DNA of 40,514 bases from a virus: IMG/VR virus record IMGVR_UViG_3300045988_176499. The stretch is one strand, 5' to 3'. This document shows positions 8,449-36,537 of this stretch, in pieces. Each line of letters opens with the position of its first letter. The first letter of the stretch is position 1. The position numbers and the translations under genes are program-made. A model generated the notes under the pieces. The model had not been told where the DNA came from. It did no database searches and was given only the letters and a program-made list of their open reading frames with translations.

Positions 8449-9139
8449 CCTCCTTGACTTTTGGCGGAGCCTATGGTATCATATAGGTACCGTGTCCGCC
8501 TCTGTGGATTCGGCCGGCCATCGCATCCGGGAGTCAGCTGTCCAGGCCTTTTACCCGGTGCGATGGTCTTTTTTTGTCCGCCGGACTGTCTGCCCGGCTG
8601 ACACATATAGTATAGCACGTCTGCGGGCGGTTGTCAAGTATTTTCGAAAATTTTCTTCGATACGCTTTGGCGTGCCCTCATAACAAAACGTTATGGAGTG
8701 ATTTTTTTTATGTTTTTGGGTAGTAGGGTGGGGGAAGTATACCATATATGGCGCGTAGCGGGTTCGCCTGTATCCGCACTTTTTTGGGGCTTTACCTGGC
8801 ATATCGCCGTCCGCGCTCCGGCGACTGTGAGTGTACACGGCGTATGCAGAGGTACATATGCGCGCTTGTATATGGTATAGCAGTCCGGCTGAGTGGTAGG
8901 TGTAGGCGATATGCGGTGCTATGTATGCATGATATACAGTGATATACATATGTATATGTATATATATGCATATAGAGGAGCAGTGAATTAAACAAAATGC
9001 GCGTTTTGTTTAATTGGAAACCCGTGTGGTATTTGTGCCATATGGTCTACCCTTGCCCCGAATAGGGGGGCGCTTCGGGACGGGAGGTAGATATACCTAT
9101 CTATCCTCACGCCAACAACGAAACAGAATCAAAGAAGAT

Positions 9140-13425: not shown

Positions 13426-13807
13426 TCGATTCACCTGCTGCCTCTCTGGCCTTTCTGGCGATGCTTTCCCGTCTGGCCGCCAGTGCCTTTTTGCCTCTCT
13501 CTCTCTGCTTCTCCATTTGCTCCGGCGTCAGCACTTTTTTCGGCTGGCGGAAGCGGAGGCATTTTGACGGAAACTCAAACTCTGCAATGGTGTAACCGTT
13601 GGCAAATTCCTTGACAGCGGTCTGCTTGTAAAGGCAGTTGGGGTTCAGCATATACGACCGGAGCAGCTTGATGATGCGCGGGTTCGTCGTGCGCATTTTG
13701 ACAAGTTTCTCTTTTTCTGTCCACTGCATGGTCGTCACGCGGAGAACGCTGCTTTGCTTCTGGCCGCGAGCAATGCCCTCTATTGGGCGGTTGACGTTTT
13801 TTGGCAT
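13412..13807 (-). CDS. Hypothetical protein, about 131 aa
   Basis: ORF trimmed to ATG at 13807 (MPKNVNRPIEG...) with a GGAG RBS. Confidence 0.4.
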   Translation of the reverse strand: MPKNVNRPIEGIARGQKQSSVLRVTTMQWTEKEKLVKMRTTNPRIIKLLRSYMLNPNCLYKQTAVKEFANGYTIAEFEFPSKCLRFRQPKKVLTPEQMEKQRERGKKALAARRESIARKAREAAGESNGAE

Positions 13808-14139
13808 AAGGCTGATCTCCTTTCGATTTCGGGCTGCGCAAATTCGCACAGGAATGCGGCGTTTGTGGCGAGGTGCCAGATGTGCGGCAGGCCGCTTTCC
13901 GCATCCAGCGCGGCGATATCATGCCTTTGAATGATCGCCAGCAGGTGCCGGTAGAGCGCGTCGATATAGCGTTCTGGTTCAACCTGCTTGTAATTTTCGC
14001 TGCTGCCGTATTTGCGGTTGCCGTAGCCGCGGATTTTCGCGACGCCCAGCACAAGCTCTGGCGGGACAAGAGATGGGCACGGCTTGCCTGCGTCTGCCTT
14101 TGCGGACTGGTTTGCTGCCGGGTACGGGGTTGCTAACAT
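13780..14139 (-). CDS. DUF5664-like protein (phage dATP/dGTP pyrophosphohydrolase-like domain), about 119 aa
   Basis: Trimmed to ATG at 14139 (MLATPYPA...) with a GGAGG RBS. The motifs RKYGSSENY and HIWHLATNAAFL resemble the KYG...HLAxxAxNxxFL signature. Confidence 0.4.
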   Translation of the reverse strand: MLATPYPAANQSAKADAGKPCPSLVPPELVLGVAKIRGYGNRKYGSSENYKQVEPERYIDALYRHLLAIIQRHDIAALDAESGLPHIWHLATNAAFLCEFAQPEIERRSALCQKTSTAQ

Positions 14140-14287
14140 GGGGATGCCTCCTTTTTGTTTTGACCGCTCTTGAGCGGGTTCGATTTTGACGCGAGATTGC
14201 CTGTATCTACATAGGGTTTGAGACATGGTTTGTCTGGGTGGTATTCTTATACCCCCTGACGTGAAAGTGTGTCGGAAGCCTGTTAGT

Positions 14288-14644
14288 TTACCTTGTTTCT
14301 GCGCTTAGATTTGCGGTTTCAGGGGTGCTTTCTCTGGGGATGTCGCTTTGTACTTTTTCCTGCCGGTTCCAGTTTGTCGCAAAAGACGCTTTGCCCTGCT
14401 GTCTTCTTCGTTCGATTTCCTCTGCGCTGAGTTCTCTGGGCGGTACAACCTTGAGCCACCGTTTCGGGAATCGGTACTCCCTTGCGCCGGTCTTTTCCTC
14501 CCGCAGCAGCTCCACCGCCGGATTCTTCTCACGCAGCCTTTCCAGCTTGCGGATGAGCGCCTTGTCATAGGTGAAGACAGTTGCTTCCGCTTCGCCTTGG
14601 TTGTAGTTGATGATCGTTTCCTGTTCAATGCTGGACAAATTCAT
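14288..14644 (-). CDS. Hypothetical protein, 118 aa
   Basis: ATG overlaps the upstream stop (ATGA). Confidence 0.4.
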   Translation of the reverse strand: MNLSSIEQETIINYNQGEAEATVFTYDKALIRKLERLREKNPAVELLREEKTGAREYRFPKRWLKVVPPRELSAEEIERRRQQGKASFATNWNRQEKVQSDIPRESTPETANLSAETR

Positions 14645-15033
14645 ACAGATGCCTCCTTGTTTTTTTCAGGCTTCAGGAAATCCTGCGCCTGTTTCTTCTT
14701 GACGTGGTAGATGACCTCAATCATGCGGTCGGCGTTTTCCCTCGACGGGCAGAGGTTATATGCCGTGACGGCAGCGTCGATATCCCTGTACAGCGCTGCG
14801 CCTGCCTGAGCCGCCTCGAGCAGCCGGTCATAGTCAAACGCATCCTTGCGGTACTGGAAGAGCGCCTCCGTCTTCGATGACGCGCAGGCCTCTTTCGTCA
14901 TCTTGCTGACGCTCCACGCATCGTACAGCCGCCGCACCTCTGCATACAGCGACCGGTCAACCACAGTCGCCTCCGTGGGCAGCGGCTTTTCTGCATACGC
15001 CAGACGGCAGATTTCATCGGGTGATAGCTGCAT
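14641..15033 (-). CDS. Hypothetical protein adjacent to the origin, about 130 aa
   Basis: ORF 14641..15072 trimmed to ATG at 15033 (MQLSPDEICRL) with an AGGAGG RBS. Confidence 0.4.
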   Translation of the reverse strand: MQLSPDEICRLAYAEKPLPTEATVVDRSLYAEVRRLYDAWSVSKMTKEACASSKTEALFQYRKDAFDYDRLLEAAQAGAALYRDIDAAVTAYNLCPSRENADRMIEVIYHVKKKQAQDFLKPEKNKEASV

Positions 15034-15059
15034 GGGCGAACCTCCTGTTCCCACTTTTT

Positions 15060-15385
15060 CAGACGTTCCCACTTTCAGATACCAGAAGTGGGAACAGTGA
15101 CGTGAAACATTTTTGGTGGTAAAGTAAAGAAAAAAGACTGATATTTATATTTTATAGAATAAATCATATATGTATAATCGTATGTGTTCCCACTGTTCCC
15201 ACTGTTCCCACTGTTTTTACCTCTCACGCGCGTACGCGTACACGCATACGCGTATAAATTATTTTTTTTGGTGGGAACGGTGGGAAAGTGGGAACAGAAT
15301 CGGGAAAAGTCTTGGCGCTCTAAGGATTTCGCTGTTCCCACTTTTGTTTCCTCTGTTCCGTTGTTCCCACTTTGTGGAACATCAG
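15060..15385. promoter_or_regulatory. Origin-like module A: about ten 9-bp iterons TGTTCCCAC/GTGGGAAC in both orientations, flanking an AT-rich stretch and an ACGCGT-rich alternating purine-pyrimidine core
   Basis: Read directly: (TGTTCCCAC)x3 at 15185-15211 and GTGGGAACG GTGGGAAAG TGGGAACAG at 15271-15297, with further copies at 15064, 15088, 15333 and 15353-15378. The AT-rich stretch is 15121-15180 and the core cacgcgcgtacgcgtacacgcatacgcgta is 15225-15254. Confidence 0.7.
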
Positions 15386-15621
15386 AAGGGCAATTCGTCT
15401 TCATTTGGCTCGTCGCCGTCTTCCTTGAAGATTACCATGACGCACCAAATTGAACGACCGTTGACCCGCTTTTTCTGCGTTGACCGGTTTTTTTTGCCGT
15501 CCACGCTTCGTATTGACACGCCCATTCGAACCGCCTCGTTGAACACATCTTTCGGCGAGAACCCCGCCTTTTTCAAGACTTCCTGCCACTTGCTGGAACA
15601 CATTTTGAGTATGGAACACAT
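15382..15621 (-). CDS. Standalone paralog of the primase C-terminal domain, ending DEPNEDELPF
   Basis: The sequence SKWQEVLKKAGFSPKDVFNEAVRMGVS...VNGRSIWCVMVIFKEDGDEPNEDELPF aligns with the last about 75 aa of the primase (SKWQEVLKKAGYSPKDVFAEAVRMGVS...VNGKKIRCIQVRFKDDFDDENGDELPF). The upstream in-frame MCS codons are module-B iterons, so the true start is uncertain. Confidence 0.5.
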   Translation of the reverse strand: MCSILKMCSSKWQEVLKKAGFSPKDVFNEAVRMGVSIRSVDGKKNRSTQKKRVNGRSIWCVMVIFKEDGDEPNEDELPF

Positions 15622-15928
15622 TTGAAAACAGCGAAATGTGTTCCACGTCGCTGAACTTTTTGGCGGCAATAAGTAAGGAAAAACGTTGATTATATATATT
15701 ATTTAGAACGAATCATATATATATAATCGTATGTGGAACACATGGAACACATGGAACACAAGTTTTTACTTCTCACGCGCGTACGCGTATATACACGCGC
15801 GTGTATAGCTTATTTTTTCGCGTGTTTCATGTGGGACATGTGTTCCAAAGCCTGAAAAGCCTTGGCGCTCTAAGGATTTCGGTGGAACACATTTCGCGTA
15901 AATCTGGAACACGGAACACATCTTAGAG
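15537..15928. promoter_or_regulatory. Origin-like module B: iterons TGGAACACA/TGTGTTCCA, an AT-rich stretch and the same conserved core; tandem paralog of module A
   Basis: Read directly: (TGGAACACA)x3 at 15734-15760 and copies at 15541, 15595, 15612, 15636 (inverted), 15841 (inverted), 15883 and 15905-15920. Conserved blocks shared with module A are gaatcatatat(g/a)tataatcgtatgtg, tttttac(c/t)tctcacgcgcgtacgcgta and cttggcgctctaaggatttcg. Confidence 0.7.
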
Positions 15929-18019
15929 CTAAAATGGGAGTTCGTCTCCATTCTCGTCGTCGAAATCATCTTTGAATCTCACTTGAATGCACCGAATTTT
16001 TTTGCCGTTTACGCGGACGGATGCAGTTGAATAACGCCGTTCAGTGTCAGTGACCCATTGAGAAACGCCCATCCGGACAGCTTCTGCAAATACATCCTTT
16101 GGGGAATATCCGGCTTTTTTCAGAACCTCCTGCCATTTGCTTGCAATCAGCCAGCAGATGTTTCCATCCCAGCGGCCGAAGGTTTCTTTTGTCGGGCTTT
16201 CGGTCTGCGCGCCTTCAAAGCTCTTGGCGTTCTGGACAATCCATTCCTTGATGTACTCGACGCCCTTTTTGTCACGGTCGGCTTCTTCGCTGGTGGTCAG
16301 GAGCGGGAGGACATCCGCTTCGGTCAGGGCGGTCTCCGGATTGTCCGGAAAGAGGACTTGCTGCGCCGCTTCGCTTGTCGCCAGCAGGAGCGAGACGGAA
16401 AGGAGCTGCTTGTCGAGGTAACCGCCTGCGCGGAGCTGGGGCCGGACTTCTGCCGCACGCTGACGGATGGATTCGACGTTGGCGGGGGATTTCAGCCAGC
16501 TTGTCCAGCGGCGGCCGGCGTGACCGTAGTTTGCCGCGATGTCTTCGACAATTTTGGCGCCGTGTTCTGCGCCGTATGTTTCGCCGGTGGCGTCGACGGA
16601 GATGATGCGGTTTTCCGCGCCGGTGCAGACGTTGTCGTCGAGGATTGCCTGTTCGCCTGTCGTGATGGCGATGGAGAGCCAGCGGGATTCCGAGGCGATG
16701 CCGCCGTCCTTCGTGCCTCTGGTTTTGCTTTTGCCGTTGGACAGCATGTAAATCACGTTTTCAAGCACGTCTTTGTTCTGGACTTCCTGCAATTCGTCAA
16801 GCATGAGCGGAAGGTTGCAGAGGAACGCCGCCGTTTTTTCCATGCCGACGGCGGTTGACGCCATGGATTTTACAAGCTCCTGCGGGAGCCCCCAGACGGA
16901 CGCCGCCAGCATAAGAAATACGGTTTTGCCTGTGCCGGACTTGCCGAACAGGTGAACGCCGAAGCCGAGGTATTTCGCCTTTGCCAGCAGGGGCGACGCC
17001 AGCGACGCGGCTACCGCGAAACGCGCGGCTCTGGATGCCGCCATGGTCTGTGCGGCGACCGCCTGCCATTTGTCCGGATCGCCGTGCGGACGGCGGACGG
17101 CTTGCAGCATGGTGTTTGTCGTCGAACTGCGGGGCAGACAGACAATTGACGAGGAAAACGGGACGAACTCTGTCTCGAACCATCCGAGGCGCGAGGATGC
17201 CGGGGAGACCGGCTGATTGTGCAGCCTTAGAGCGAACGCAACCGCCATCTGCCGGTAATCCGTGATGGTAACGCCGTAGCCGCTGAGCGCCTTGACGAGC
17301 TGCGGGTCTGTCAGCGTCCGGCGGTCGAACGGCTCCTCGCGATGCTTCAATCCGTCGTGAAAACGGAGGACGACCGCGTGCAGCCCCGTGTCTTCATCGG
17401 CGTAGACGCCCTGAATCTGGATGCCGGTGTGACAAATGTATTGCATCTGCGGCTGACCTTTTGGCGGCGTGAAGATGAAATAGACGCCATTTTCCGCCCA
17501 GATGAAGCCCTCATCAATCTTGGAGTGTTCCGGGATATCGATTGCGGACGGCTCGAACGGCGCGGACAGCGCGGTGATTTCTTTGTCGAGCTGATCACGC
17601 TTTTCGCGGAGCTGCTGCGCCTTTTCCGTTTCGCCGGAGACCTCTGCGCGGAGGATATCCTCCGCCATGGCATCCCACGCCGCCTCCGCCGCCTTGAGCT
17701 TCGCGCGGTTCTGCCAGTAGTCCGTCTCTGCTTTCGTCGCCGGTTTGTCAAACTCGACACCCAGATGCAGCGCTTCGTTCAACTTTTTCGCCGCGTCATA
17801 AGGGGTGCTTCCGTCCATCTGGGCGGCGAGGGCGATGGTGTCGCCGTGCCACCCGCAGGCGAAACAGTAGAAGCCGTCTTTATAAATGCGCATGGACGGA
17901 TGCTCGTCTTTCCCGTGAAACGGGCAGCTGACCATATTCGCCTTGTTGGCGTGCAGCCCGTAGAGCGCGAGCACATCTGCGGGGTCGGCGCGGTCTTTGA
18001 CCGCCTCGAAAACCGTCAT
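15929..18019 (-). CDS. DNA primase/helicase (N-terminal CHC2 zinc finger, C-terminal P-loop NTPase), ending DDENGDELPF
   Basis: CPFHGKDEHPSMRI...FYCFACGWHGD is a DnaG-type CHC2 zinc-binding motif. Walker A is HLFGKSGTGKT. The iteron origin lies directly downstream, as in Sfi21-type replication modules. Confidence 0.8.
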   Translation of the reverse strand: MTVFEAVKDRADPADVLALYGLHANKANMVSCPFHGKDEHPSMRIYKDGFYCFACGWHGDTIALAAQMDGSTPYDAAKKLNEALHLGVEFDKPATKAETDYWQNRAKLKAAEAAWDAMAEDILRAEVSGETEKAQQLREKRDQLDKEITALSAPFEPSAIDIPEHSKIDEGFIWAENGVYFIFTPPKGQPQMQYICHTGIQIQGVYADEDTGLHAVVLRFHDGLKHREEPFDRRTLTDPQLVKALSGYGVTITDYRQMAVAFALRLHNQPVSPASSRLGWFETEFVPFSSSIVCLPRSSTTNTMLQAVRRPHGDPDKWQAVAAQTMAASRAARFAVAASLASPLLAKAKYLGFGVHLFGKSGTGKTVFLMLAASVWGLPQELVKSMASTAVGMEKTAAFLCNLPLMLDELQEVQNKDVLENVIYMLSNGKSKTRGTKDGGIASESRWLSIAITTGEQAILDDNVCTGAENRIISVDATGETYGAEHGAKIVEDIAANYGHAGRRWTSWLKSPANVESIRQRAAEVRPQLRAGGYLDKQLLSVSLLLATSEAAQQVLFPDNPETALTEADVLPLLTTSEEADRDKKGVEYIKEWIVQNAKSFEGAQTESPTKETFGRWDGNICWLIASKWQEVLKKAGYSPKDVFAEAVRMGVSQWVTDTERRYSTASVRVNGKKIRCIQVRFKDDFDDENGDELPF

Positions 18020-18543
18020 GCGTCCAGCTCCTTCCGGATTTCTGCCAACAAAAACTCATGGGCTTCGCGCTGTAAGATGTCGCGGATGAGCAGACCGCCC
18101 AGTTCGGCCTTGCAGAAGATCGGCACGCAGTTGTAGCGCGAGAGCCACGCGAGGACAGACGCCGTTAATGCTTTGGCATCCATGTGCGACCGGTATTTGC
18201 CGTTGTAGATGTGTTCCCACGTTGCGTTCTCGACGAGGAGGTAAATTTTCATGCCCTTGCCGCGTTCAAACTCACGCTCGAAACGGGCGCGGTCTTTCGT
18301 ATAACACATGCACAGCTCGTCCAGACTAAACTTGCGCTCGATGGCGACGCGGTCGGACAGGTCGGCACTTGACCCGTCCGGCATGGGGATTTTTACGCTG
18401 TAATCGCCGACATTTAAGGCGACGCGCTCAATCGGCCAGCCAACCTGTGTGATGCGTTCATGAAATTTTTTCGTATCCTGTTCTCTGGTATCGACCAGCA
18501 GCGTCAGGTTTTTTTCTGCCGCTGCCATTTCTGCCGGATGCAT
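18016..18543 (-). CDS. ERCC4-type (XPF/Mus81/Hef-like) nuclease, about 175 aa
   Basis: ORF 18016..18591 trimmed to ATG at 18543 with an AAGGAGG RBS. The motif LLVDTREQ...GDYSV...VAIERKFSLDEL matches the ERCC4 GD(Y/F)...ERK...D signature. Confidence 0.6.
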   Translation of the reverse strand: MHPAEMAAAEKNLTLLVDTREQDTKKFHERITQVGWPIERVALNVGDYSVKIPMPDGSSADLSDRVAIERKFSLDELCMCYTKDRARFEREFERGKGMKIYLLVENATWEHIYNGKYRSHMDAKALTASVLAWLSRYNCVPIFCKAELGGLLIRDILQREAHEFLLAEIRKELDA

Positions 18544-23993: not shown

Positions 23994-25046
23994 ATGGCAA
24001 CAGCACGAAAACAGGACGATGGACGCTGGGCTGTACAAGTCTATGTCCGGCGGGATATCGACGGGAAGCAGCGGCGGAAACGCATCTATGGGCGCACGAA
24101 ACGCGAGGCGGAGCTTGCTGCGGCACAATGGGAAGTGAAGAAGCAGCACAACGTCGGGGCGGGAAATCTGACGGTTGGGAAGGCGATTGACGATTACATT
24201 GAAGAGCGTTCAAATATTTTGTCACCGTCCAGCATTCGAACATATAAGCGAATCGCCAGAAATATCGAATCATGGTTTTTAATGCTTCCGCTGGAATCGG
24301 TCGAGGCGGAAGACATTCAAAAATTGGTCAACCGGTATGCCGCAACACATGCGCCAAAAACGGTTAAGTCGCAAGCCGATCTGATCATCGCGGTCTGGAA
24401 AAAAGCGAATGACGGAAGAGTCCCGAAGATTGTTCTGCCGAGATTGGAGCGGAAAGAAGTCTCCGTTCCGGAGCCAGAAGACATTGAAACCCTGCTTCAA
24501 TTCGTCAAGGGCACGGACTATGAAATCCCGATTTTGCTGGCGTCTCACATGGGGCTGCGCCGGGAAGAAATCTGCGCTTTGACATGGACAGATATCAACT
24601 TTGAGGAAAAAAGCCTGACAGTGAAAAGCGCACTTGTGAAGGACGACAAAAACCAGTGGGTCAAGAAAACGACGAAGGCGGAAGCGTCAAAACGGGTCTT
24701 GCTAATCCCTGAGCGGGTGTTGAATGTGCTGGACGAAAAACGTGAACCGACGGGGAATGTATGCAAGTTGAAACCCAGTACGCTGACCAGCAAACTGCCG
24801 GGGATTATTCAGCGTGCGGGGCTTCCGCCATTCACGATTCACACGCTGCGGCACTACTATGCATCGGTGCTTTTATCCATCGGGGTTCCAATCAATTATG
24901 TTGCAGATGAGCTTGGACACGCAACAAATAGTATGGCGGAGCGGGTTTATGGGCATATTATGTCCGGTGCAAAAACGCAAATTCGTCGCAAAATCCTCAC
25001 GCACTTCAACGGGAACGGTGAACAGGAAAGTGAACAGCAAAATTGA
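23994..25046 (+). CDS. int: Tyrosine site-specific integrase
   Basis: 350 aa. The C-terminal catalytic region contains HTLRHYYASVL (H-x-x-R), LGHATNSMAERVY and a Tyr. The N-terminal region is SAM-like. It is adjacent to a tRNA-derived attP region. Confidence 0.9.
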   Translation: MATARKQDDGRWAVQVYVRRDIDGKQRRKRIYGRTKREAELAAAQWEVKKQHNVGAGNLTVGKAIDDYIEERSNILSPSSIRTYKRIARNIESWFLMLPLESVEAEDIQKLVNRYAATHAPKTVKSQADLIIAVWKKANDGRVPKIVLPRLERKEVSVPEPEDIETLLQFVKGTDYEIPILLASHMGLRREEICALTWTDINFEEKSLTVKSALVKDDKNQWVKKTTKAEASKRVLLIPERVLNVLDEKREPTGNVCKLKPSTLTSKLPGIIQRAGLPPFTIHTLRHYYASVLLSIGVPINYVADELGHATNSMAERVYGHIMSGAKTQIRRKILTHFNGNGEQESEQQN

Positions 25047-25463: not shown

Positions 25464-28400
25464 CTATTTTGCCGTGGAATTTTTCTGGCTGAAGTAGGCT
25501 TCCGAGTTCTGGAAGACCTGTCGGACAGCGGCTTTTTTGGCTGCTGTGCTGAGCTTTTTCAGGGCGGAAACCTTGGTTTCAGCGTCCGCGTCGGATGTGA
25601 GAATATCCTCTGCATTTTGGTAGTATTCCGCGATATAGCCGGTGTTGTAGGCGAAGTATTCCGCATAGCTGAGCGGGATGTCCTGATGGCCGACGCGTAT
25701 GGACGTTTCAACTGCTTTTGGGAGGATGGACATATCGCCCGTTTCGACGGCGAGGGCTTTTAGCTTTTCGACGGTTGCGGACGTGTCTTCTGTCTGACGG
25801 TCTGACATGAACTGGTCGAGCATTTGGAGCATAGTGACCTTTGCCGTGCGGGTGTTGGGGTCATTTTTGCTGCTTGCCTGAGAGAGCAGGCCGCTGGCGC
25901 GGCTGTAAAACGTCGCCTGAGCGTCGTAGAGCGCTTTTTCGGCTTGCAGTGCCTTGTTATCCGGGTAGGTCGTTGCTTTCGTTGTGAGGTCGCTGCGCGC
26001 ATCGTAGAAGCGGTTGGTGATGTCCTGGCTGTACACGCTGTCTTTGGTGAAGCCGAGCGTTGTGCTGAGGCCTTCCAGCGAGAGCGGGTTTGCCGCCTGC
26101 GAGCCGTTGACGGGGAAAAGATTCTGCTGGACGGTCTGGACAAAGCCGAGGCTTTTCAGCGCGTAGTCGATTTTCATCGGCGACCAGCCGAGCGCTTTGC
26201 CTGCCGCCTGGGCGAGCTTGGATGTTTTGTCGTTATACTGCTTCCACGCTTCAACGCCTTCGAGGTTCGCCGGAACGATGGGGTTGCCGCGGTAGTCGAT
26301 GTTGAGGATGGCGCCGAGCGGGGAGCCGATCCAGCCGAGGGAGTTGATCGCCGTGCCGAAAAACTGACTGCCGCCGTCTGTGCTGCCCATGCCGCCGGGG
26401 ACGAGGTAGAGCGAATCTACAATTTTCGGCAGAAGCTGATCCATGCTGTAACCGGCGAAATCGTAGAGGGCATTCTCGTTATTGTAGAGTTCTTCTTCGA
26501 CCAGACGGGCGGTCAGGGACGTCAGGATGCCGAGTTCACGCGGCTTGCGCACGGTGAAGAATTTCCCGTTGCCAATGTAGATGCAGTAGGAGTTATTCTT
26601 CTGGTATGTAGACAGGCGCGAATAGGCCTCTTCGGCTTCTTTGTCGCCTGGGTCAAAGCCTGTGCCAGCGAGGGCTTCCAGTGAGCCGAGGACGATGGAC
26701 GCAAGGGCGAAGTGCGTGAGCCGCTTGGCCGCCGTTTCCACGCGAGACTGTCCTGCCTTTCGGTCGAGTCCGGTGAGATAACGGTACTCTTTTGTCAGAC
26801 CTTGCAGCCCGGCATTGAAGAAGGGGACGACGCGGTTGATCTTCTTCGACCAGATGCCGCCGCGGGAGAAATCCGTCGTGATGTTGGCGGCGCGGAACAG
26901 GGCTTCTTCTGCGGACATGCCTGCCTTTCGGCTGAGGACATATTCGTTTGCGCGGAGATACTGTTCGATGCCGCCGGAGAAGCCTTCCCACGCTTCGCCG
27001 GCTTTGCGTTTTGCCTGCTTGAGTTTCTGCACCGTTTGGGAGTCCTTGCTGCTGTCGAAGACGGCGTTTGTGTTGCCGGAGACGCCTTCGCCCCAGCCGC
27101 CGAGCACGAAATATTCACGCATGGTCTGGTCGCTGCCGGAGCCGGTGAACATTTCCTGAAAGAACGGTTTTGTGTTGCGGGCGACTTCTGCAAGCAGGCC
27201 GCCGAACTCTGACATGCTGTCCTGCGTCATCATGGCCGTTTGGAAGTCGCGCGCGGGGTTGGATGCGATGTTGAACGCCGGGTTCATGGTCGTGACGAAC
27301 GACGTAAACTTCCGGTTCATTTTCGCGATGAAGCGGGCGACCGGCCCGATGGTTTCCGGTTTCATCGCTTCGAGCGCATCAAACAGCGTTTTGTCGTGGA
27401 CGTGATAGCTGACCTCTTTGCCGTCCTTAAAATAGCTGACGTAGTCGCCGCCTTTGCGGGCGACCTTGGTGATTCTGGTCAGGACGGACGGGAGGACGGC
27501 TTGCAGGATATCTTCGACTTCTTCCGCGTCGATGTCATAGCCGCGGGACGCGACTTCGGCAATGGCGTCTTTCGTGAGCTTTGCAGCGGCCTGATCGGTT
27601 TTCAGCGTTTCGACCTTCGTCTGCTTGGGCGCCAAATCCGCCAGCCAGCCGAGACCTTCTGTGTTGTGGATAGACTGAAAGATCATGGCGCGCGCGCGGT
27701 TCAGCCGCCCCGCCTGCACGGCGTTGTTGGTGAAGCTGATGATGTTGTCGAGAATCGGATTGACGTCACGCGTGGAGCCGTACTGCCGGTGAACGACCTG
27801 ACCGTCTCCGGACTTGCCCTGCTTTTTGCCGGAGACTTTGGTATCGTTTTCAAAAAAACGGTTCATCGGGACGTAGTTCGGCGCTTCTCTGTCCCAGGCA
27901 TCCGCCTGCTCCTTGGAGATCAGCCCCGTGCCGACGAGCCATGTATCCCGCACGTTTTTGACAAATTGGACGGTCGCTTTGGCCGCGTCCTGAATGCCGG
28001 GGTACTGTGCTTCGAGGCTGGCGAGCGCAGATTGCATGGCTGTATCGGAACTTAGCGTCGGGTCGGCGAAGATCTGGACACCGCGGGCTTGGTCTTCGAG
28101 CGCGTGCTGAATGCCGAGGTAAGTGTTCAAGGCAGCTCTGTGCGCCTGATCGTCGAAATTCAGGTTTCCGGCCTTCATTGCTTCGACGAGACTGCCGCCG
28201 GTCTTCTGGCCGTTGACGTCTGTGACGCCTTGCAGGACGCACTGCGCTGCCTGAGACTGAGCGTTGCGCGTGGCTCTGACGGCAAACTCGATATCGCGGC
28301 TGCCTGTGAGGTCGGCGACCTTTTTGGCGCCGTAGAGATCGTCTGTGATGTGGGTCAGCCACCACTCTTTTGCTTGGGTGTAGGTGTCTTTGCTTTTGAG

Positions 28401-31400
28401 CGCTTCGAGCTTGGACGTCTCTGTTGTCGTCGGGTTGAAGGCGAGACCGTATCTTGTCAGCGCGTCACTGCCGAAATAGCGGTTTGATTCCGCAAAGACT
28501 TCTTGGAGGTTCTGCCATGTTTTGGCGTCAACCGCCGTTTGGAGGTACTGGGTCATGGCGGGGTAGGCTTTTGCGGCGGCGTCAGCGTTCAGCATGGTTT
28601 CGCGGAAGAATTCTGCGAGACCTTCTACCACATGGAGTTGTGCGGGATAAGCCTGTTTCATCGCCGGAGAGAGGTTTCTTTCCAGCTCCGACCGGACGAC
28701 GGGGTCTGCTTTTTTCAGCAGGCTGAACCGTTTATCCATGGCGTGACCGGCTTCATGCGCGAGGACGGGGAGGTCGTTGGTCTGGCGGACGTGAACGTTT
28801 TCCGACTTCGTCATAAATTCGCCGATGGCGCTGCGCAGAAACATTTCTTTTTCCGCAACAGTTAGTTTCAACTTACTCTCTGTAAACTTCCGCAGATCAG
28901 ACAGGGAACGGCTCTGCCCTTCGCCGGATTTTTTGGCGTCGCCAATCCATTGGGATGATGGAGAACGCGCGGCTTGCGTTTCCTGCGGCTGAGACGAACG
29001 CTGAGAAGCGTTTTGCGATTGGGCGGTGTAGTTTAGCGGTTCGACAAACGCGCCGTTCTGAACGGTCTGTGCGCCCGAAAAGGACATTGCCTGAATGTTT
29101 TGTAATTCTGGTGTGCCGGAAAGGGATTTCAACTCGGCGCGCTGTTCCGCTTTTGTTTTGCCTTCGAGGTTGAGCCGAATACCGGCGTTGCTGAGCTGCT
29201 GCAGGGCTTCCGGGCTGGCGAGGATGGATTCTGCCTGCGAGTTGGTGAGCGGTTTGCCGGTTTTCAGGGTTTGCAGTGCGTCTGCTGTTTTGCTGGTGGG
29301 CTGTGCGGTTTGCGCGGCGGTTTGCGCGGTTTGTACGGTTTGCGCGGCTTTATATTTGGCGGGGTCGATGGACAGGCCGTTTGCCGCGTCTAACTGCATG
29401 AATCGGATGAGATTGCCGCGTTCTACCGCCGTGAGCGGCGTCTGCTTGGCTGCCAGCTCTTTGGCCAGCCGGTAGGATTCGGCGCGATCGTCCATTTGAA
29501 GCGCCTGTTTGAGGATGGAGGGCGCGGTCTGTCTGCCTGTTTTGGCGTCTCCGACGGCGTTGATCGCCGCGCCGATGCCGGTCATGGCTGCGCCGGACAG
29601 TGCGCCGCCTGCGCCTGCGAGGACGATGTCACCGATGGTATCTAAAATGGCCTGTTTGGATGCTTCTGTCGCCGACATGCCGCCGGACGTCTTGTATGCT
29701 TCGACCTTCTGGCTGAGCTTTGACAGGTCACCCATGAGGAGATAGTCGGTCACGGCGTTCGCCAGTTCGGTGGCCGCTTCTTCCTGCGCGTTTGTGAGCG
29801 CGGATTTTGCCACATCAGCGACGACGGAGCGGAGGCTGGAGCGGCCGGTCGTCCGGAGTGCCTTGACTTCGGAGAGGCTGTATTTTTCAAACAGCCCTTC
29901 AAAGACACCGGCGAGCAGACCGCCTGCGAGCGCCTGTTCATCCGAGCCGCCGCGCGCTGCGATGTCTCTTGCCGCGGAAGCGCCTGCGCCGGTTGCGAGG
30001 ATGGCTGCGCCGAGCGTGGGGCCGCCCACATAAGAGGCAAGCAGGCTGTTTGCCATGGAGACGCCGGTCTGGTAGAGGAAAGACCAACCGGAACCGTATT
30101 TTCGGTTGATTTTTTCAGCGACGGTTCCGGACAGCGTTTCCGGCGTTGCGCTGTTTCGCTGCGACGGCGTGTTGAAATCGATGGGCTGACCGGTGAACGC
30201 CTTTTTCACGCCCTGTGTGGCAAGGTCTGCCGCACCGGCAAGACCGGCCAAGGGGGACAGCGCGATGGACGCCGCCGTAGCAAGCGTTTCATGCTTGTTT
30301 GCAAACGCCTCCATGCGCTGCTGCTGGTCTTCTGCGGCGCGGTCGTCGAGCAGGGGTTTCAGGCTGTTGAAATAGTCGACCGCCGCCTTATAGCCGCGGG
30401 TGTTTAGAAGATAGCTGGCGACGTCGCGTTCCGACGGCTCCATGAAGTTGACTTTTCCGAGGGTTTCATCCATGGAGAGCTGCTTTGCATCCGTTCCGGT
30501 TGGGTCGGCGAGCATTTTGCTGATGCGGCGGGCGGTTTCATAGGTTTCGCGGTCTTTCGTGAAGAGCTTGGGCGCGTCGCCTTCCAGCACCTTGGGCGCT
30601 TTGTTGGCGGCGAAATCAGGAGCGCTGGTGACTTCGCTTTCGATGCGGTTTTTCACCTGTGCTTCCGGGGATTCCTGTGCTTTGTACCGGTCGGCGAGAT
30701 AGGCTTTCAGCAAATCGAGGTGGAATTTTTCATTTTCATGCTGGCGGTCATAGGCGTCTGCGCCGGACTGACCCAGATTGGCGGCTTTTGTGAGCGACAG
30801 GCCGTTTCCAACACCCATGTTTTCGGTTTCCCGGTCTTTCTGAGACTGCCGAGCCTTCTGCCGTTCGGATTCATATGCTGCCTGCGCTTCGTCGTAGGCG
30901 ATTTTCAAGTCGGCGTAGGATTTGCCGTCCCACTCCTGCATGTACTGGATGGCTTTTGCCTGTTTGAGTTCTTCGCTGTTTGCGGCGCCATGCAGACCGG
31001 CTTTGTTCAGCCGGTATTGAATTTCAGACGGTTTGCCGCCCTTCTGCGCTTCGTCTGAAAGGGCGAGGCGGTCAAACGCCTTCCGGTTGGTGGGGCTTTC
31101 AAAGTTTTGGCGTTCCGGCTTTGGAGCGGGCTGATTTGCCCTTGCCGCCATGCGGCGGCGGGTTTCCGCTTCAGCCGTCATGGATATGCTGTTGTCTTCG
31201 CCGGTGCGCCACGCGGCTTCGTAGCGGCGGGCAGCGGCTCTTTTTTGCCGCGCGATTTCCACATCGTCCTGCGGGAGGGATGCCAGCCCGTTGTTATACC
31301 GCGTTGTCCATGCTTCCGCCGCTTCGGCGCGGCGTCTGCGCGCTTCTTCTTCCTGCCGCTCCTTCTGGCGGGTCGTATTTTCGTACTGCCGGATGGCAGA

Positions 31401-31478
31401 AGCCCCTCGGCGGACGCCTCCGCTTTGGTTCAGCTTCGCCTGCGCGGCGGCATATCGCTGGAAAAGGTTGTCAGCCAT
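25464..31478 (-). CDS. Giant virion protein, about 2004 aa (tape-measure, ejection or polyvalent-like), with Gly-zipper hydrophobic segments and a HExxH metallopeptidase-like motif
   Basis: ORF 25464..31496, but the preferred start is ATG at 31478 (MADNLFQ) behind a GAAGGAGG RBS. The HExxH motif is in VLAHEAGHAMDKRF at about nt 28735-28760. Glycine-rich hydrophobic stretches are GGPTLGAAILATGAGASAARDIAARGG and GDIVLAGAGGALSGAAMTGIGAAINAVG. It is the last gene of the late operon after the capsid genes. Confidence 0.6.
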   Translation of the reverse strand: MADNLFQRYAAAQAKLNQSGGVRRGASAIRQYENTTRQKERQEEEARRRRAEAAEAWTTRYNNGLASLPQDDVEIARQKRAAARRYEAAWRTGEDNSISMTAEAETRRRMAARANQPAPKPERQNFESPTNRKAFDRLALSDEAQKGGKPSEIQYRLNKAGLHGAANSEELKQAKAIQYMQEWDGKSYADLKIAYDEAQAAYESERQKARQSQKDRETENMGVGNGLSLTKAANLGQSGADAYDRQHENEKFHLDLLKAYLADRYKAQESPEAQVKNRIESEVTSAPDFAANKAPKVLEGDAPKLFTKDRETYETARRISKMLADPTGTDAKQLSMDETLGKVNFMEPSERDVASYLLNTRGYKAAVDYFNSLKPLLDDRAAEDQQQRMEAFANKHETLATAASIALSPLAGLAGAADLATQGVKKAFTGQPIDFNTPSQRNSATPETLSGTVAEKINRKYGSGWSFLYQTGVSMANSLLASYVGGPTLGAAILATGAGASAARDIAARGGSDEQALAGGLLAGVFEGLFEKYSLSEVKALRTTGRSSLRSVVADVAKSALTNAQEEAATELANAVTDYLLMGDLSKLSQKVEAYKTSGGMSATEASKQAILDTIGDIVLAGAGGALSGAAMTGIGAAINAVGDAKTGRQTAPSILKQALQMDDRAESYRLAKELAAKQTPLTAVERGNLIRFMQLDAANGLSIDPAKYKAAQTVQTAQTAAQTAQPTSKTADALQTLKTGKPLTNSQAESILASPEALQQLSNAGIRLNLEGKTKAEQRAELKSLSGTPELQNIQAMSFSGAQTVQNGAFVEPLNYTAQSQNASQRSSQPQETQAARSPSSQWIGDAKKSGEGQSRSLSDLRKFTESKLKLTVAEKEMFLRSAIGEFMTKSENVHVRQTNDLPVLAHEAGHAMDKRFSLLKKADPVVRSELERNLSPAMKQAYPAQLHVVEGLAEFFRETMLNADAAAKAYPAMTQYLQTAVDAKTWQNLQEVFAESNRYFGSDALTRYGLAFNPTTTETSKLEALKSKDTYTQAKEWWLTHITDDLYGAKKVADLTGSRDIEFAVRATRNAQSQAAQCVLQGVTDVNGQKTGGSLVEAMKAGNLNFDDQAHRAALNTYLGIQHALEDQARGVQIFADPTLSSDTAMQSALASLEAQYPGIQDAAKATVQFVKNVRDTWLVGTGLISKEQADAWDREAPNYVPMNRFFENDTKVSGKKQGKSGDGQVVHRQYGSTRDVNPILDNIISFTNNAVQAGRLNRARAMIFQSIHNTEGLGWLADLAPKQTKVETLKTDQAAAKLTKDAIAEVASRGYDIDAEEVEDILQAVLPSVLTRITKVARKGGDYVSYFKDGKEVSYHVHDKTLFDALEAMKPETIGPVARFIAKMNRKFTSFVTTMNPAFNIASNPARDFQTAMMTQDSMSEFGGLLAEVARNTKPFFQEMFTGSGSDQTMREYFVLGGWGEGVSGNTNAVFDSSKDSQTVQKLKQAKRKAGEAWEGFSGGIEQYLRANEYVLSRKAGMSAEEALFRAANITTDFSRGGIWSKKINRVVPFFNAGLQGLTKEYRYLTGLDRKAGQSRVETAAKRLTHFALASIVLGSLEALAGTGFDPGDKEAEEAYSRLSTYQKNNSYCIYIGNGKFFTVRKPRELGILTSLTARLVEEELYNNENALYDFAGYSMDQLLPKIVDSLYLVPGGMGSTDGGSQFFGTAINSLGWIGSPLGAILNIDYRGNPIVPANLEGVEAWKQYNDKTSKLAQAAGKALGWSPMKIDYALKSLGFVQTVQQNLFPVNGSQAANPLSLEGLSTTLGFTKDSVYSQDITNRFYDARSDLTTKATTYPDNKALQAEKALYDAQATFYSRASGLLSQASSKNDPNTRTAKVTMLQMLDQFMSDRQTEDTSATVEKLKALAVETGDMSILPKAVETSIRVGHQDIPLSYAEYFAYNTGYIAEYYQNAEDILTSDADAETKVSALKKLSTAAKKAAVRQVFQNSEAYFSQKNSTAK

Positions 31479-31496
31479 CGTTGAGACCTCCTTCAT

Positions 31497-35178: not shown

Positions 35179-36537
35179 TCAGACGATTTTATTTTTTGTG
35201 CCGCGCCCGACGGAATCCTCCATCTTTGCTTTGGGCGCGGAAGAGCGGGTAAACTGGAATTGCGGGATGATGGGCGGCGGCGGTTTGACGCCGCTTGTGC
35301 GGAAGACGCAGAAACCGCGGAGCGCATCCGGCGCGTGAGTGATTTCGTGCGGTTCCGTCGCGCAGTCTGTCGGATTTCGGTCGTCGTGGCAGAGCTGCGG
35401 AAGGTATTTGATGAGGTTCGTGCAGTTTTTGAAAATCTTGAGCATGGACGTATCTGCGCCGAACTCATCCTTGACGGGTTTGAGCTGTTCTTTGACGGCC
35501 AGCCAACCGGCGACGCGGTTGTTGGAGGTTTTCGTGAGGTGGATGCCGGCTTCTTCAAAGATTTCTGCCGTTGTGCGTCCGGTTTCACGCTGGCGGCTCC
35601 ACAAGTCCGGCGGCGCGAGAAATTCGTAGATGGGTTCTGAAGCGTTCATCCACAGGATTTCGTTTGCCGCTTCGGAGACCGGAAGGTTCGGCTTATGCAG
35701 CTCTTTGTAGACGTATGTCCGGTTGTCCGGGGAGACGGCGAACCACAGCACTGCACACATGTCGAGGCCGTAGTCCATGGAGACGTAGCGCCGCCATTCC
35801 GGCGGGATGTCGAACGGGTCGCAGACGTGGATATCACGGCTGAACTCTGAGAAATACTGACCGAGAAACGCGTCCCAGTTGCCGTCGCGCCATGCCTGAC
35901 GCTGCCCTTCCGGCAGGCTGTCGAGCCAGACAAGATAGCCCGGGTCTTTTGCTTTCAGCGCGTCGTTGTCGGACGCCTTGGCCTGAATGAAGGTGTAGTC
36001 CTTTTCGTATTCGCCGGGGCGGTAATCCCGGTCGATGAAGAGGCGTTTCACCCACGAATGACCGACTCCTCCCGGGTTGCAGGTCAGGTAAATTCGTTTC
36101 GGGATATCGTTGACGCCGCGGCAGCAGGACGAAATCCACATATACTGGTATTCCGTGAGCTGCGTCGCCTCGTCGATGAAGATGAAATCGTATTCCTGCC
36201 CTTGATATTGCAGGACGTCTGACTCCTGATCGCAGAAGCCGAGGCGAATCATCGCGCCGTTTTCAAAGAAAAACGCTTTTTCCGTCTCTTTGTAGCTTGC
36301 GATGCCGTTCAGCAGCGCCATCAGGGGACGCGTGTGGTTCTCGCGCAGTTCCGGCAGCGTCCGGCGGACAATCAGAATCCGGCAGTTTGGGTAGTTGAGC
36401 GCCAGCAGGGACGCCTTTGCACGGACTGCCCACGACTTGCCGCCGCCGCGCGCGCCGCCGTAGGCGATGTAGCGCGTATCTGCGCGGAAAAACTGCTCCT
36501 GCTTGGGATTCGGCTTGCCTAAAACCAGTGTTTTCAT
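35179..36537 (-). CDS. terL: Terminase large subunit
   Basis: Walker A is YGGARGGGKSWA and Walker B is FIFIDEATQ. Size is 452 aa, with a C-terminal nuclease-like region. Its start overlaps the upstream stop (AAATGA). Confidence 0.9.
   Translation of the reverse strand: MKTLVLGKPNPKQEQFFRADTRYIAYGGARGGGKSWAVRAKASLLALNYPNCRILIVRRTLPELRENHTRPLMALLNGIASYKETEKAFFFENGAMIRLGFCDQESDVLQYQGQEYDFIFIDEATQLTEYQYMWISSCCRGVNDIPKRIYLTCNPGGVGHSWVKRLFIDRDYRPGEYEKDYTFIQAKASDNDALKAKDPGYLVWLDSLPEGQRQAWRDGNWDAFLGQYFSEFSRDIHVCDPFDIPPEWRRYVSMDYGLDMCAVLWFAVSPDNRTYVYKELHKPNLPVSEAANEILWMNASEPIYEFLAPPDLWSRQRETGRTTAEIFEEAGIHLTKTSNNRVAGWLAVKEQLKPVKDEFGADTSMLKIFKNCTNLIKYLPQLCHDDRNPTDCATEPHEITHAPDALRGFCVFRTSGVKPPPPIIPQFQFTRSSAPKAKMEDSVGRGTKNKIV

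Follow-up and report, generated by a model that had tools for sequence, protein, structure and literature searches.

Two stacked pairs of a DNA-binding wing and an iteron array behind an initiator-helicase gene of a gut phage: a probable recombinational stack of old alleles

In the pathogenicity islands of Staphylococcus aureus (SaPIs), iterons are recognized by the winged helix of the C-terminal domain of Rep, and the origin, located immediately downstream of rep, contains 6–12 iterons with an A+T-rich center and opposite iteron orientation on its two sides (PMC9371898). Here we describe a locus of this general kind in a virus record of IMG/VR (IMGVR_UViG_3300045988_176499), whose entire 40,514 nucleotides (nt) were analyzed and are referred to as the window. 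Downstream of its initiator-helicase gene, the window contains two origin-like iteron modules (B and A), each preceded by a coding copy of the helicase C-terminal winged helix (HTH_56), one fused to the helicase and the other in a small open reading frame (ORF). Combining this layout with a comparison set of 30 related loci, we propose, with a probability of roughly 0.65, that the window holds a recombinational stack of two pre-existing alleles, resolvable to either single form, of which the B pair is working and the A1 pair is displaced. Most likely, module B and the fused wing constitute the working origin, module A and the small ORF represent a dispensable displaced cassette, and the small ORF itself is a poorly translated or untranslated remnant.

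The core of the locus is formed by two tandem units of ~548 bp within 15047–16141, each consisting of a 3′ winged-helix (HTH_56) coding part followed by an iteron module. The repeat unit includes the last 70 codons of the helicase and an origin-like module, with homology running from helicase residue S627 (window position 16141) to the last iteron (15047). Alignment of 15030–15605 with 15590–16150 yielded 79% column identity at a period of 547–550 bp, in good agreement with a preliminary description of this DNA (made from the sequence alone) as two paralogous origin-like modules with an A+T-rich block, an alternating core and shared conserved blocks. The feature is indeed present in the range given there (15060–16140), although its actual limits, 15047–16141, are slightly wider. 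Every gene around the locus is on the minus strand, and its features are as follows (window coordinates, strand, description and supporting evidence):

15929..18019, minus strand: initiator-helicase gene, 696 amino acids (aa), annotated "primase-helicase" (ORF, Pfam, PHROG 8841, PDB matches, AlphaFold2, Foldseek).
15929..16141, minus strand: coding part of unit B, helicase S627–F696 plus stop codon, the helicase-fused B-type specificity allele (alignment, secondary structure).
16013..16060, minus strand: B-type variable wing, residues 654–669, QWVTDTERRYSTASVR, the segment differing among the five alleles (alignments, model).
15595..15928, no strand: module B, iteron candidate origin, predicted cognate of the fused B-type wing (repeats, word counts, alignment).
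15671..15731, no strand: A+T-rich block of module B, candidate DNA-unwinding element (composition, shared block D5).
15774..15807, no strand: alternating purine/pyrimidine G+C-rich tract of module B, 34 bp, perfect (tract scan).
15854..15884, no strand: conserved central box of module B (GAAAAGCCTTGGCGCTCTAAGGATTTCGGTG, plus strand), between direct and inverted iterons (shared block D10).
15589..15602, minus strand: stacking junction, last B iteron TGTGTTCC (15595–15602) against AGCAAG (15589–15594) (multiple alignment).
15382..15603, minus strand: small ORF, displaced A1-type C-terminal fragment, 73 aa from ATG 15603 (ORF list, Pfam, alignments).
15047..15381, no strand: module A, A1-type iteron candidate origin (repeats, word counts, comparison with siblings).
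15122..15182, no strand: A+T-rich block of module A (composition, shared block D5).
15225..15256, no strand: alternating purine/pyrimidine tract of module A, 32 bp (tract scan).
15304..15334, no strand: conserved central box of module A (shared block D10).
14641..15046, minus strand: next gene, 130 aa from ATG 15033 (MQLSPDEICRL...), the right-hand homologous flank of the cassette (ORF, alignment).

Modules B (334 bp, non-coding, 15595–15928) and A (335 bp, 15047–15381) are built on the iteron words TGTGTTCCA and GTGGGAACA, respectively, and have the same register and orientation pattern of iterons: 3–4 direct sites, the central box, 3 inverted sites, the alternating tract, 3 tandem direct sites, the A+T block, 1 inverted and 2 direct sites. 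Including degenerate copies, there are ~13 sites per module, with 9 (module B) and 10 (module A) exact 8-mers, and the non-iteron blocks common to both modules (families D5, D6 and D10) are 80–94% identical. The word TGTGTTCC occurs 12 times in the 40.5-kb window, including 9 copies in 15595–15920 (1.0 expected by chance; none of 100 shuffles reached 12), and GTGGGAAC occurs 11 times, including 10 copies in 15047–15370 (0.84 expected; 0/100 shuffles reached 11). This enrichment of a distinct word in each module confirms the earlier impression that the iterons differ in a correlated way, each set following its own copy of the winged-helix C-terminus. G+C content drops to 0.37 in both modules. 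Module B begins 8 nt past the helicase stop codon and has iterons in both orientations, which lie on both sides of the A+T-rich center and downstream of the initiator ORF, i.e., in the arrangement of a SaPI-type origin. At the opposite end of the locus, the GGAGG ribosome-binding site of the next gene (15041–15045) directly abuts the last A iteron.

The key evidence comes from relatives. A blastn search of 14600–18100 against a phage GenBank collection returned no match, and an IMG/VR protein scan combined with two DNA-pattern scans returned only one relative, the truncated locus L001. The sole match in a scan of genome contigs was a locus in a Clostridia metagenome-assembled genome (L016) at 28% identity, and the host is therefore not pinned down precisely; a metagenome scan added two loci only, including the decisive L018. 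A query with the small ORF retrieved a handful of small proteins, whose contigs show the order of 696-aa helicase, module B, small ORF, second module and next gene. Across these two-module loci, the helicase C-terminus and module B are almost invariant by multiple alignment (module B being near-invariant across all B-type relatives), and the iteron word of the second module is swapped at every site in concert between types, with its non-iteron blocks conserved. The stretch of the small ORF past RMGVS changes together with this word, and the segment of the protein that varies maps to residues 654–669 of the helicase, the beta wing. Five wing/iteron alleles can be distinguished:

A1, GTGGGAACA: free-standing in the window, L008, L009 and L017; helicase-fused in L019–L025.
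A2, GTGGTAACA: free-standing in L006; helicase-fused in L030.
A3, CCGGTAACA: free-standing in L002–L005 and L010–L015; helicase-fused in L018.
A4, GCGGTCACA: free-standing in L007; helicase-fused in L029.
B, TGTGTTCCA: helicase-fused in all B-type loci; never seen free-standing.

Each wing type pairs one-to-one with its own iteron word in every locus, whether free or fused, with ~8–11 exact copies of the word in intact modules. Cognate wing–iteron specificity is strongly supported by these sequence comparisons, and since the five wings match five words in otherwise >90% identical helicases, residues 654–669 are the predicted specificity determinant.

Single-module relatives, which the preliminary description had proposed to seek in related phages, were indeed found for the A1, A2, A3 and A4 types as well as in outgroups. 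Thus, in the 696-aa helicase of L018, the A3 small-ORF sequence is fused in frame as the last ~55 residues; a CCGGTAACA module and the next gene come directly after it, with neither module B nor a small ORF. The 90% cluster of the helicase has 283 members; among the 15 listed, the wings are of type B in 5, A1 in 8, A2 in 1 and A4 in 1, and the contigs confirm single-module genomes with matching iterons for A1 (L019–L025), A4 (L029) and A2 (L030). Every A type is also found fused to a helicase in the company of a sole candidate origin, and module A of the window differs from the sole module of L019–L025 by only 7 mismatches and 1 gap over ~347 bp. Because each A cassette occurs fused with matching iterons in single-module genomes, each is, by this comparison, a functioning pair of wing and origin by itself. 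Both outgroups (L027 and L028, with helicases 55–60% identical) have a single module in the same layout with GGTAACA-like iterons; since these outgroups and the sibling contigs carry one module, the single module is, judging by its distribution, the ancestral and commonest state. A role of the iterons and the small DNA-binding protein as a partition centromere was considered and rejected, as no ParA/ParM/TubZ-type gene is present nearby and the module is the sole origin in siblings. As a separate observation, a ~150-bp insert in L027 (4595–4745) parts the helicase stop codon from the origin and contains a near-consensus, promoter-like TTGACA-17-TATAAT site and two copies of CCCCATGCCTAAAGGCAG.

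The history of the alleles appears to differ from that initially suggested, namely, a duplication caught in the act of specificity divergence. The synonymous divergence (dS) between types is saturated in wing codons (1 to >2.8) vs. 0.1–0.8 in adjacent helicase codons, and divergence in situ is further contradicted by the A types occurring fused, as the sole origin, in L018, L019–L025, L029 and L030 and by the single-module state of the outgroups. Since between-type synonymous sites are saturated, the alleles are, on this measure, old and shuffled by recombination, not diverged in place.

Traces of such shuffling are found at the junction and on both sides of it. All two-module loci, with any A type, share a junction in which TGTGTTCC is joined to AG(C/A)AA(G/A)TGG (Ser-Lys-Trp codons), and all B-type phages share the join of TGTGTTCC to AGCAAGTGG, followed by either an A-type remnant or a deletion scar. 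Over their first 100 nt, the free A4 copy of L007 and the fused A4 copy of L029 show a single difference (1 nt), the fused A1 lineage falls within the free A1 copies, and the HTH codons show mosaic/gene-conversion tracts (Y/F638 and A/N645 combinations; hybrid P0025). Three lineages have independently lost all or part of the A unit: 159 bp are missing from module A of L017, module A is absent from L002 and 8 contigs like it, and L026 is devoid of both the small ORF and module A, retaining the scar of AGCAAGTGG joined to GAACAGGAGG. Among the loci compared, module B and the origins of single-module phages showed no deletion of this kind.

Several additional observations concern the modules themselves. 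The three longest perfect purine/pyrimidine alternations in the window are 15774–15807 (34 bp), 8942–8974 (33 bp) and 15225–15256 (32 bp), the first and the last representing G+C-rich cores of the modules and the second being an A+T-only run elsewhere. The alternation is kept across allele types though the sequence differs, and extends over only 13 bp in L027 and L028. Compared with its orientation in A1, A2 and B, the conserved central box (CTTAGAGCGCCAAG on the gene strand) is turned around in the A3 and A4 modules; as it sits between opposed (direct and inverted) iteron triplets, it may be flipped by recombination between them. A composite word holding both iteron cores, TGTGTTCCCAC, is present on the border of the triple iteron of module A (15183–15193) and inside the ERCC4 nuclease gene (18210–18220); the latter was considered as a meaningful site and judged to be fortuitous, and both occurrences are probably due to chance.

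The 696-aa protein (labeled DNA primase/helicase in PHROGs, PHROG 8841) combines a DnaG-type CHC2 zinc ribbon (PF01807, residues 4–91), a DUF927 domain (174–442; E-value 1.4e-48), which constitutes an AAA+/MCM-like core, and HTH_56 (583–684; 3e-9). No TOPRIM domain was detected by Pfam at E ≤ 0.01 and the zinc ribbon is the only primase-type element, so that primase activity of the helicase is not supported by its sequence; a distant relative, L032, does have a Toprim domain. A phmmer search against the PDB matched SaPIbov1 Rep (8TCH, 3e-13) and the Cch protein of the staphylococcal cassette chromosome SCCmec (5DGK, 8e-13), and the AlphaFold2 model (mean predicted local distance difference test, pLDDT, 81) matched the same two structures in Foldseek (E 7e-24 and 3e-22, respectively; target-normalized template-modeling score ~0.7 for both). 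By sequence and predicted fold, the helicase is thus a homologue of SaPIbov1 Rep and Cch. The likeness to SaPI Rep/ori pairs, drawn as an analogy in the preliminary description, is borne out and strengthened to homology, along with the five-way covariation. The modeled C-terminal domain (pLDDT ~90 for its winged-helix part) contains a helix (582–596), a hairpin (615–625), a helix-turn-helix formed by helices 626–635 (SKWQEVLKKA) and 640–649 (SPKDVFAEAV), and a beta wing (strands 656–681).

The helicase C-terminus reads ...SKWQEVLKKAGYSPKDVFAEAVRMGVSQWVTD...GDELPF, and the small ORF ...MCSSKWQEVLKKAGFSPKDVFNEAVRMGVSIRSVDG...EDELPF. This acidic tail, (G/E)DELPF, closes both proteins (15929–15946 and 15382–15399) and is disordered in the model; among fetched homologues of >400 aa, the C-terminus is DELPL in 54, DELPF in 17 and a close variant in ~35 more. 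The C-terminal tip of SSB (single-stranded DNA-binding protein) is DDDIPF in E. coli and DDDLPF in S. aureus SsbA (PMC5531588). Given this resemblance, the helicase tail may, by analogy, recruit an SSB-binding partner to the origin.

The small ORF (frame 15382..15669, minus strand) has three possible starts, ATG 15603, ATG 15621 and TTG 15669, and no Shine-Dalgarno sequence was found at any of them, whereas the neighboring genes have GGAGG or AGGAG. It matches only positions 48–108 of the 111 in the HTH_56 profile: helix 2, helix 3, the wing and the acidic tail are retained and, as the duplicated unit starts at S627, helix 1 (582–596) and the first hairpin (615–625) are missing. Its 70 aa constitute the C-terminus of the full-length helicase in siblings L019–L025. 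A 1-nt frameshift alters its N-terminus in the haplotype of L008, L009 and L010–L015. Modeled alone by AlphaFold2, it has a pLDDT of 49.7 from a shallow 5-sequence alignment, which provides little information either way. An exhaustive hidden Markov model search of 1.84 billion representatives showed that free-standing copies are confined to this phage group. One apparent exception, the 77-aa "free" HTH_56 protein P0145, was rejected: on scaffold L032, a run of N (2370–2387) splits a Toprim-DUF927-HTH_56 helicase gene, and the C-terminus was catalogued separately. This case is a caution for database tallies of small HTH_56 proteins.

These data can be reconciled in the following scenario. The region would serve as the origin from which a temperate Clostridia phage replicates by means of a self-loading initiator-helicase of the SaPI-Rep/Cch type, whose C-terminal winged helix (HTH_56) would read ~13 iterons right behind its own stop codon, with DNA opening presumably at the A+T-rich block among the iterons, as expected from the mechanism of the SaPI Rep family. 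The "wing + iteron array" unit would exist in the phage population as at least five old interchangeable alleles, two of which the window holds in tandem. The founding event may have been a homologous crossover in the helicase gene together with an illegitimate join of the end of ori B to AGC AAG TGG, and later homologous exchanges with single-module A-type phages would have set A1, A2, A3 or A4 behind the same junction. Such a stack is expected to be metastable: an A-only phage would re-form by recombination across the two ~80-nt repeats that code for the HTH, and a B-only phage would follow from iteron–iteron or microhomology deletions. We consider the second cassette likely to be dispensable or decaying because of the observed deletions, the frameshift, the missing Shine-Dalgarno site, the incomplete fold and the narrow distribution.

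A number of observations weigh against this interpretation. In the frameshifted haplotype, an upstream ATG restores a 95-aa frame. The 59 C-terminal codons of the small ORF are intact in all 18 loci that have it (18/18), and within-type differences amount to 7–14 synonymous and 0 nonsynonymous (12/0 between the window and L008, 11/0 between L003 and L010, 14/0 between L010 and L002), the sole change seen in free-standing copies being a conservative K→R in L017. Such absence of nonsynonymous decay matches the expectation for selection on an expressed small-ORF protein. Exact iteron counts of the free module A equal those of fused-type origins, and the two-module form appears to be common and to have persisted through appreciable divergence of module B and of the B-type codons. 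As free and fused copies interconvert, conservation of the small ORF may have been imported from functional fused alleles by recombination; repeated exchange or gene conversion with the latter would keep the small ORF "fresh." That the detached A-type winged helix or the spare origin is active in some way (via a dominant-negative block on siblings, replication by a heterospecific helicase, or a one-step specificity switch escaping an origin-targeting attack) is doubtful, yet a possibility to be taken seriously.

Among more specific alternatives, a dual-origin system would require that the small ORF is expressed as a free-standing recognition subunit that binds module A iterons and provides an independently specified second origin, e.g., by recruiting the helicase or a host factor via the shared acidic ...DELPF tail. 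Perfect wing/iteron covariation, the lack of within-type nonsynonymous decay, the full origin architecture retained in module A, the placement of the small ORF within the early operon, where no terminator separates it from the helicase gene, and conservation of the acidic tail in both proteins are all consistent with such a system. We nevertheless regard it as unlikely, given that no Shine-Dalgarno site precedes the small ORF, that its fold is missing helix 1 and the first hairpin (modeled alone, it reaches only pLDDT 50, from a shallow 5-sequence alignment), and that its N-terminus is frameshifted in one widespread haplotype. Moreover, module A or the whole unit is gone in three independent lineages (in one of them across 9 contigs), one module suffices for most sampled relatives and both outgroups, and there is no known route for a helicase-less fragment to load a helicase.

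Competition between sibling phages, in which the stack would supply a truncated A1 winged helix that blocks A1-type origins of co-infecting or resident phages in a dominant-negative way, an extra ori A through which an A1-type helicase replicates the B-type genome or is titrated, or a bet-hedging cassette whose specificity switches upon a single deletion, seems to us quite improbable. In its favor, several alleles of different specificity circulate together in the same samples (nearby ENA accessions yielded L007 and L029), the remnant is always one of four A types that also work as fused alleles in single-module phages, products of switching exist (e.g., L018 and L029), and a precedent is available in RepA_N/ori swaps of PLEs (elements resembling phage-inducible chromosomal islands) under attack by ICP1 Odn (PMC8263062). 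Expression of the small ORF is, however, as problematic here (no Shine-Dalgarno site), no observation ties the stack to an effect on fitness, its loss in the deletion derivatives shows that it is unneeded, and neutral recombination between co-circulating alleles predicts the same pattern equally well.

The notion that the modules are operator arrays or promoter regions, with winged-helix proteins as transcriptional regulators of downstream genes, could draw on the last iteron abutting the ribosome-binding site of the next gene and on weak promoter-like hexamers in the A+T block. It is very unlikely, since a promoter/terminator scan of 14800–16300 revealed no excess of promoter-like matches (3 vs. 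1.9 expected from shuffles), the layout is that of a SaPI origin, the binding domain belongs to a SaPI Rep-homologous helicase, and the location right 3′ of the helicase gene is conserved in outgroups. Finally, a chimeric assembly of two co-occurring strains joined at shared sequence is hardly credible: strains of the A and B types are indeed found together in the same projects, but the junction sequence is present in neither parental form and is identical in independent ENA, Logan and JGI assemblies produced by differing assemblers from differing samples and with four A types.

Elsewhere in the window, there is a tyrosine integrase gene (23994–25046, plus strand), by which the phage is considered temperate. 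Three minus-strand genes encode a protein of 2010 aa that has a "large polyvalent protein" domain, LPD38 (25464–31496), the terminase large subunit (35179–36537) and a protein with a dATP/dGTP diphosphohydrolase N-terminal domain (13780–14226), which we take to be MazZ-like.

Overall, the recombinational stack that we favor and its relatives provide a natural allelic series (five wings, five 9-bp words) for the HTH_56 winged helix of Cch/SaPI-Rep-type initiators, which points to residues 654–669 as the likely determinant of specificity and offers ready-made swap constructs for assays. Origin specificity would be exchanged in the form of a "wing + origin" cassette, with conserved HTH codons and the next gene serving as homology arms, and the stacked intermediate is caught alongside its own resolution products. 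If the detached fragment turned out to be active, it could mediate replication-level incompatibility or immunity between sibling temperate gut prophages, following a logic like that of Odn and RepA_N in the ICP1–PLE conflict. A swap of an initiator DNA-binding domain together with the origin is known from lambdoid phages. Such a swap is also already known from PLE satellites (PMC8263062). New here, as variants of this theme, are the intermediate with its stacked cassettes and the series of alleles found in a gut phage's HTH_56 helicase.

A comparison with described systems places this locus as follows. The P4 alpha protein is a primase-helicase with an iteron-binding C-terminal domain, and the P4 genome has two cis iteron regions, ori and crr, which share one iteron type and are both required by one protein. 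Unlike in P4, each of the two arrays of the window has its own word, paired with its own wing, and the second is apparently dispensable, being absent or deleted in many relatives. No kinship of P4 alpha with DUF927/HTH_56 emerged from Pfam, PDB-sequence or Foldseek matches of the window helicase. Hence, the initial comparison with the ori-binding C-terminal domain of P4 alpha holds as a loose functional parallel only. In lambdoid phages, the iteron-binding domain of the O protein and the iterons covary among otherwise recombining phages; there, the origin is located inside the O gene, and the initiator is not a helicase. We know of no stacked heterospecific origin copies in lambdoid phages.

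A parallel in logic, though not in fold, is provided by the RepA_N/ori modules of PLEs, Vibrio cholerae satellites (Barth et al. 2021, PMC8263062): the DNA-binding domain and the iteron origin covary and are exchangeable, the rest of the initiator is conserved with several recombinational swaps, and a copy of the initiator DNA-binding domain is found outside the initiator, in ICP1 Odn. The differences (PMC8263062) are that the RepA_N fold is unrelated to HTH_56, the PLE module is N-terminal with an origin not likewise adjacent, the detached domain is fused to a nuclease and resides in the genome of an enemy, and tandem stacking of two modules is not among the features described in the passages considered.

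Also among the closest known systems are the Rep/ori pairs of SaPI1, SaPIbov1 and SaPI5 and SCCmec Cch, after which HTH_56 is named in Pfam ("Cch helix-turn-helix"). Common to them and to the window are a homologous DUF927 MCM-like/AAA+ initiator-helicase with a C-terminal winged helix, an origin right 3′ of its gene, opposed iterons flanking an A+T-rich center, and cognate Rep–ori pairs (PMC9371898). Unlike in SaPI and SCC elements, the carrier is a temperate siphovirus-like phage of gut Clostridia, its helicase has an N-terminal DnaG zinc ribbon, and its origin has ~13 sites of 9-mer iterons in addition to the 32–34-bp alternating purine/pyrimidine tract. The five specificities reported here differ only in the wing of otherwise >90% identical helicases, whereas SaPI Reps have been described as sequence-unrelated (PMC9371898), and two heterospecific cassettes are stacked in one genome.

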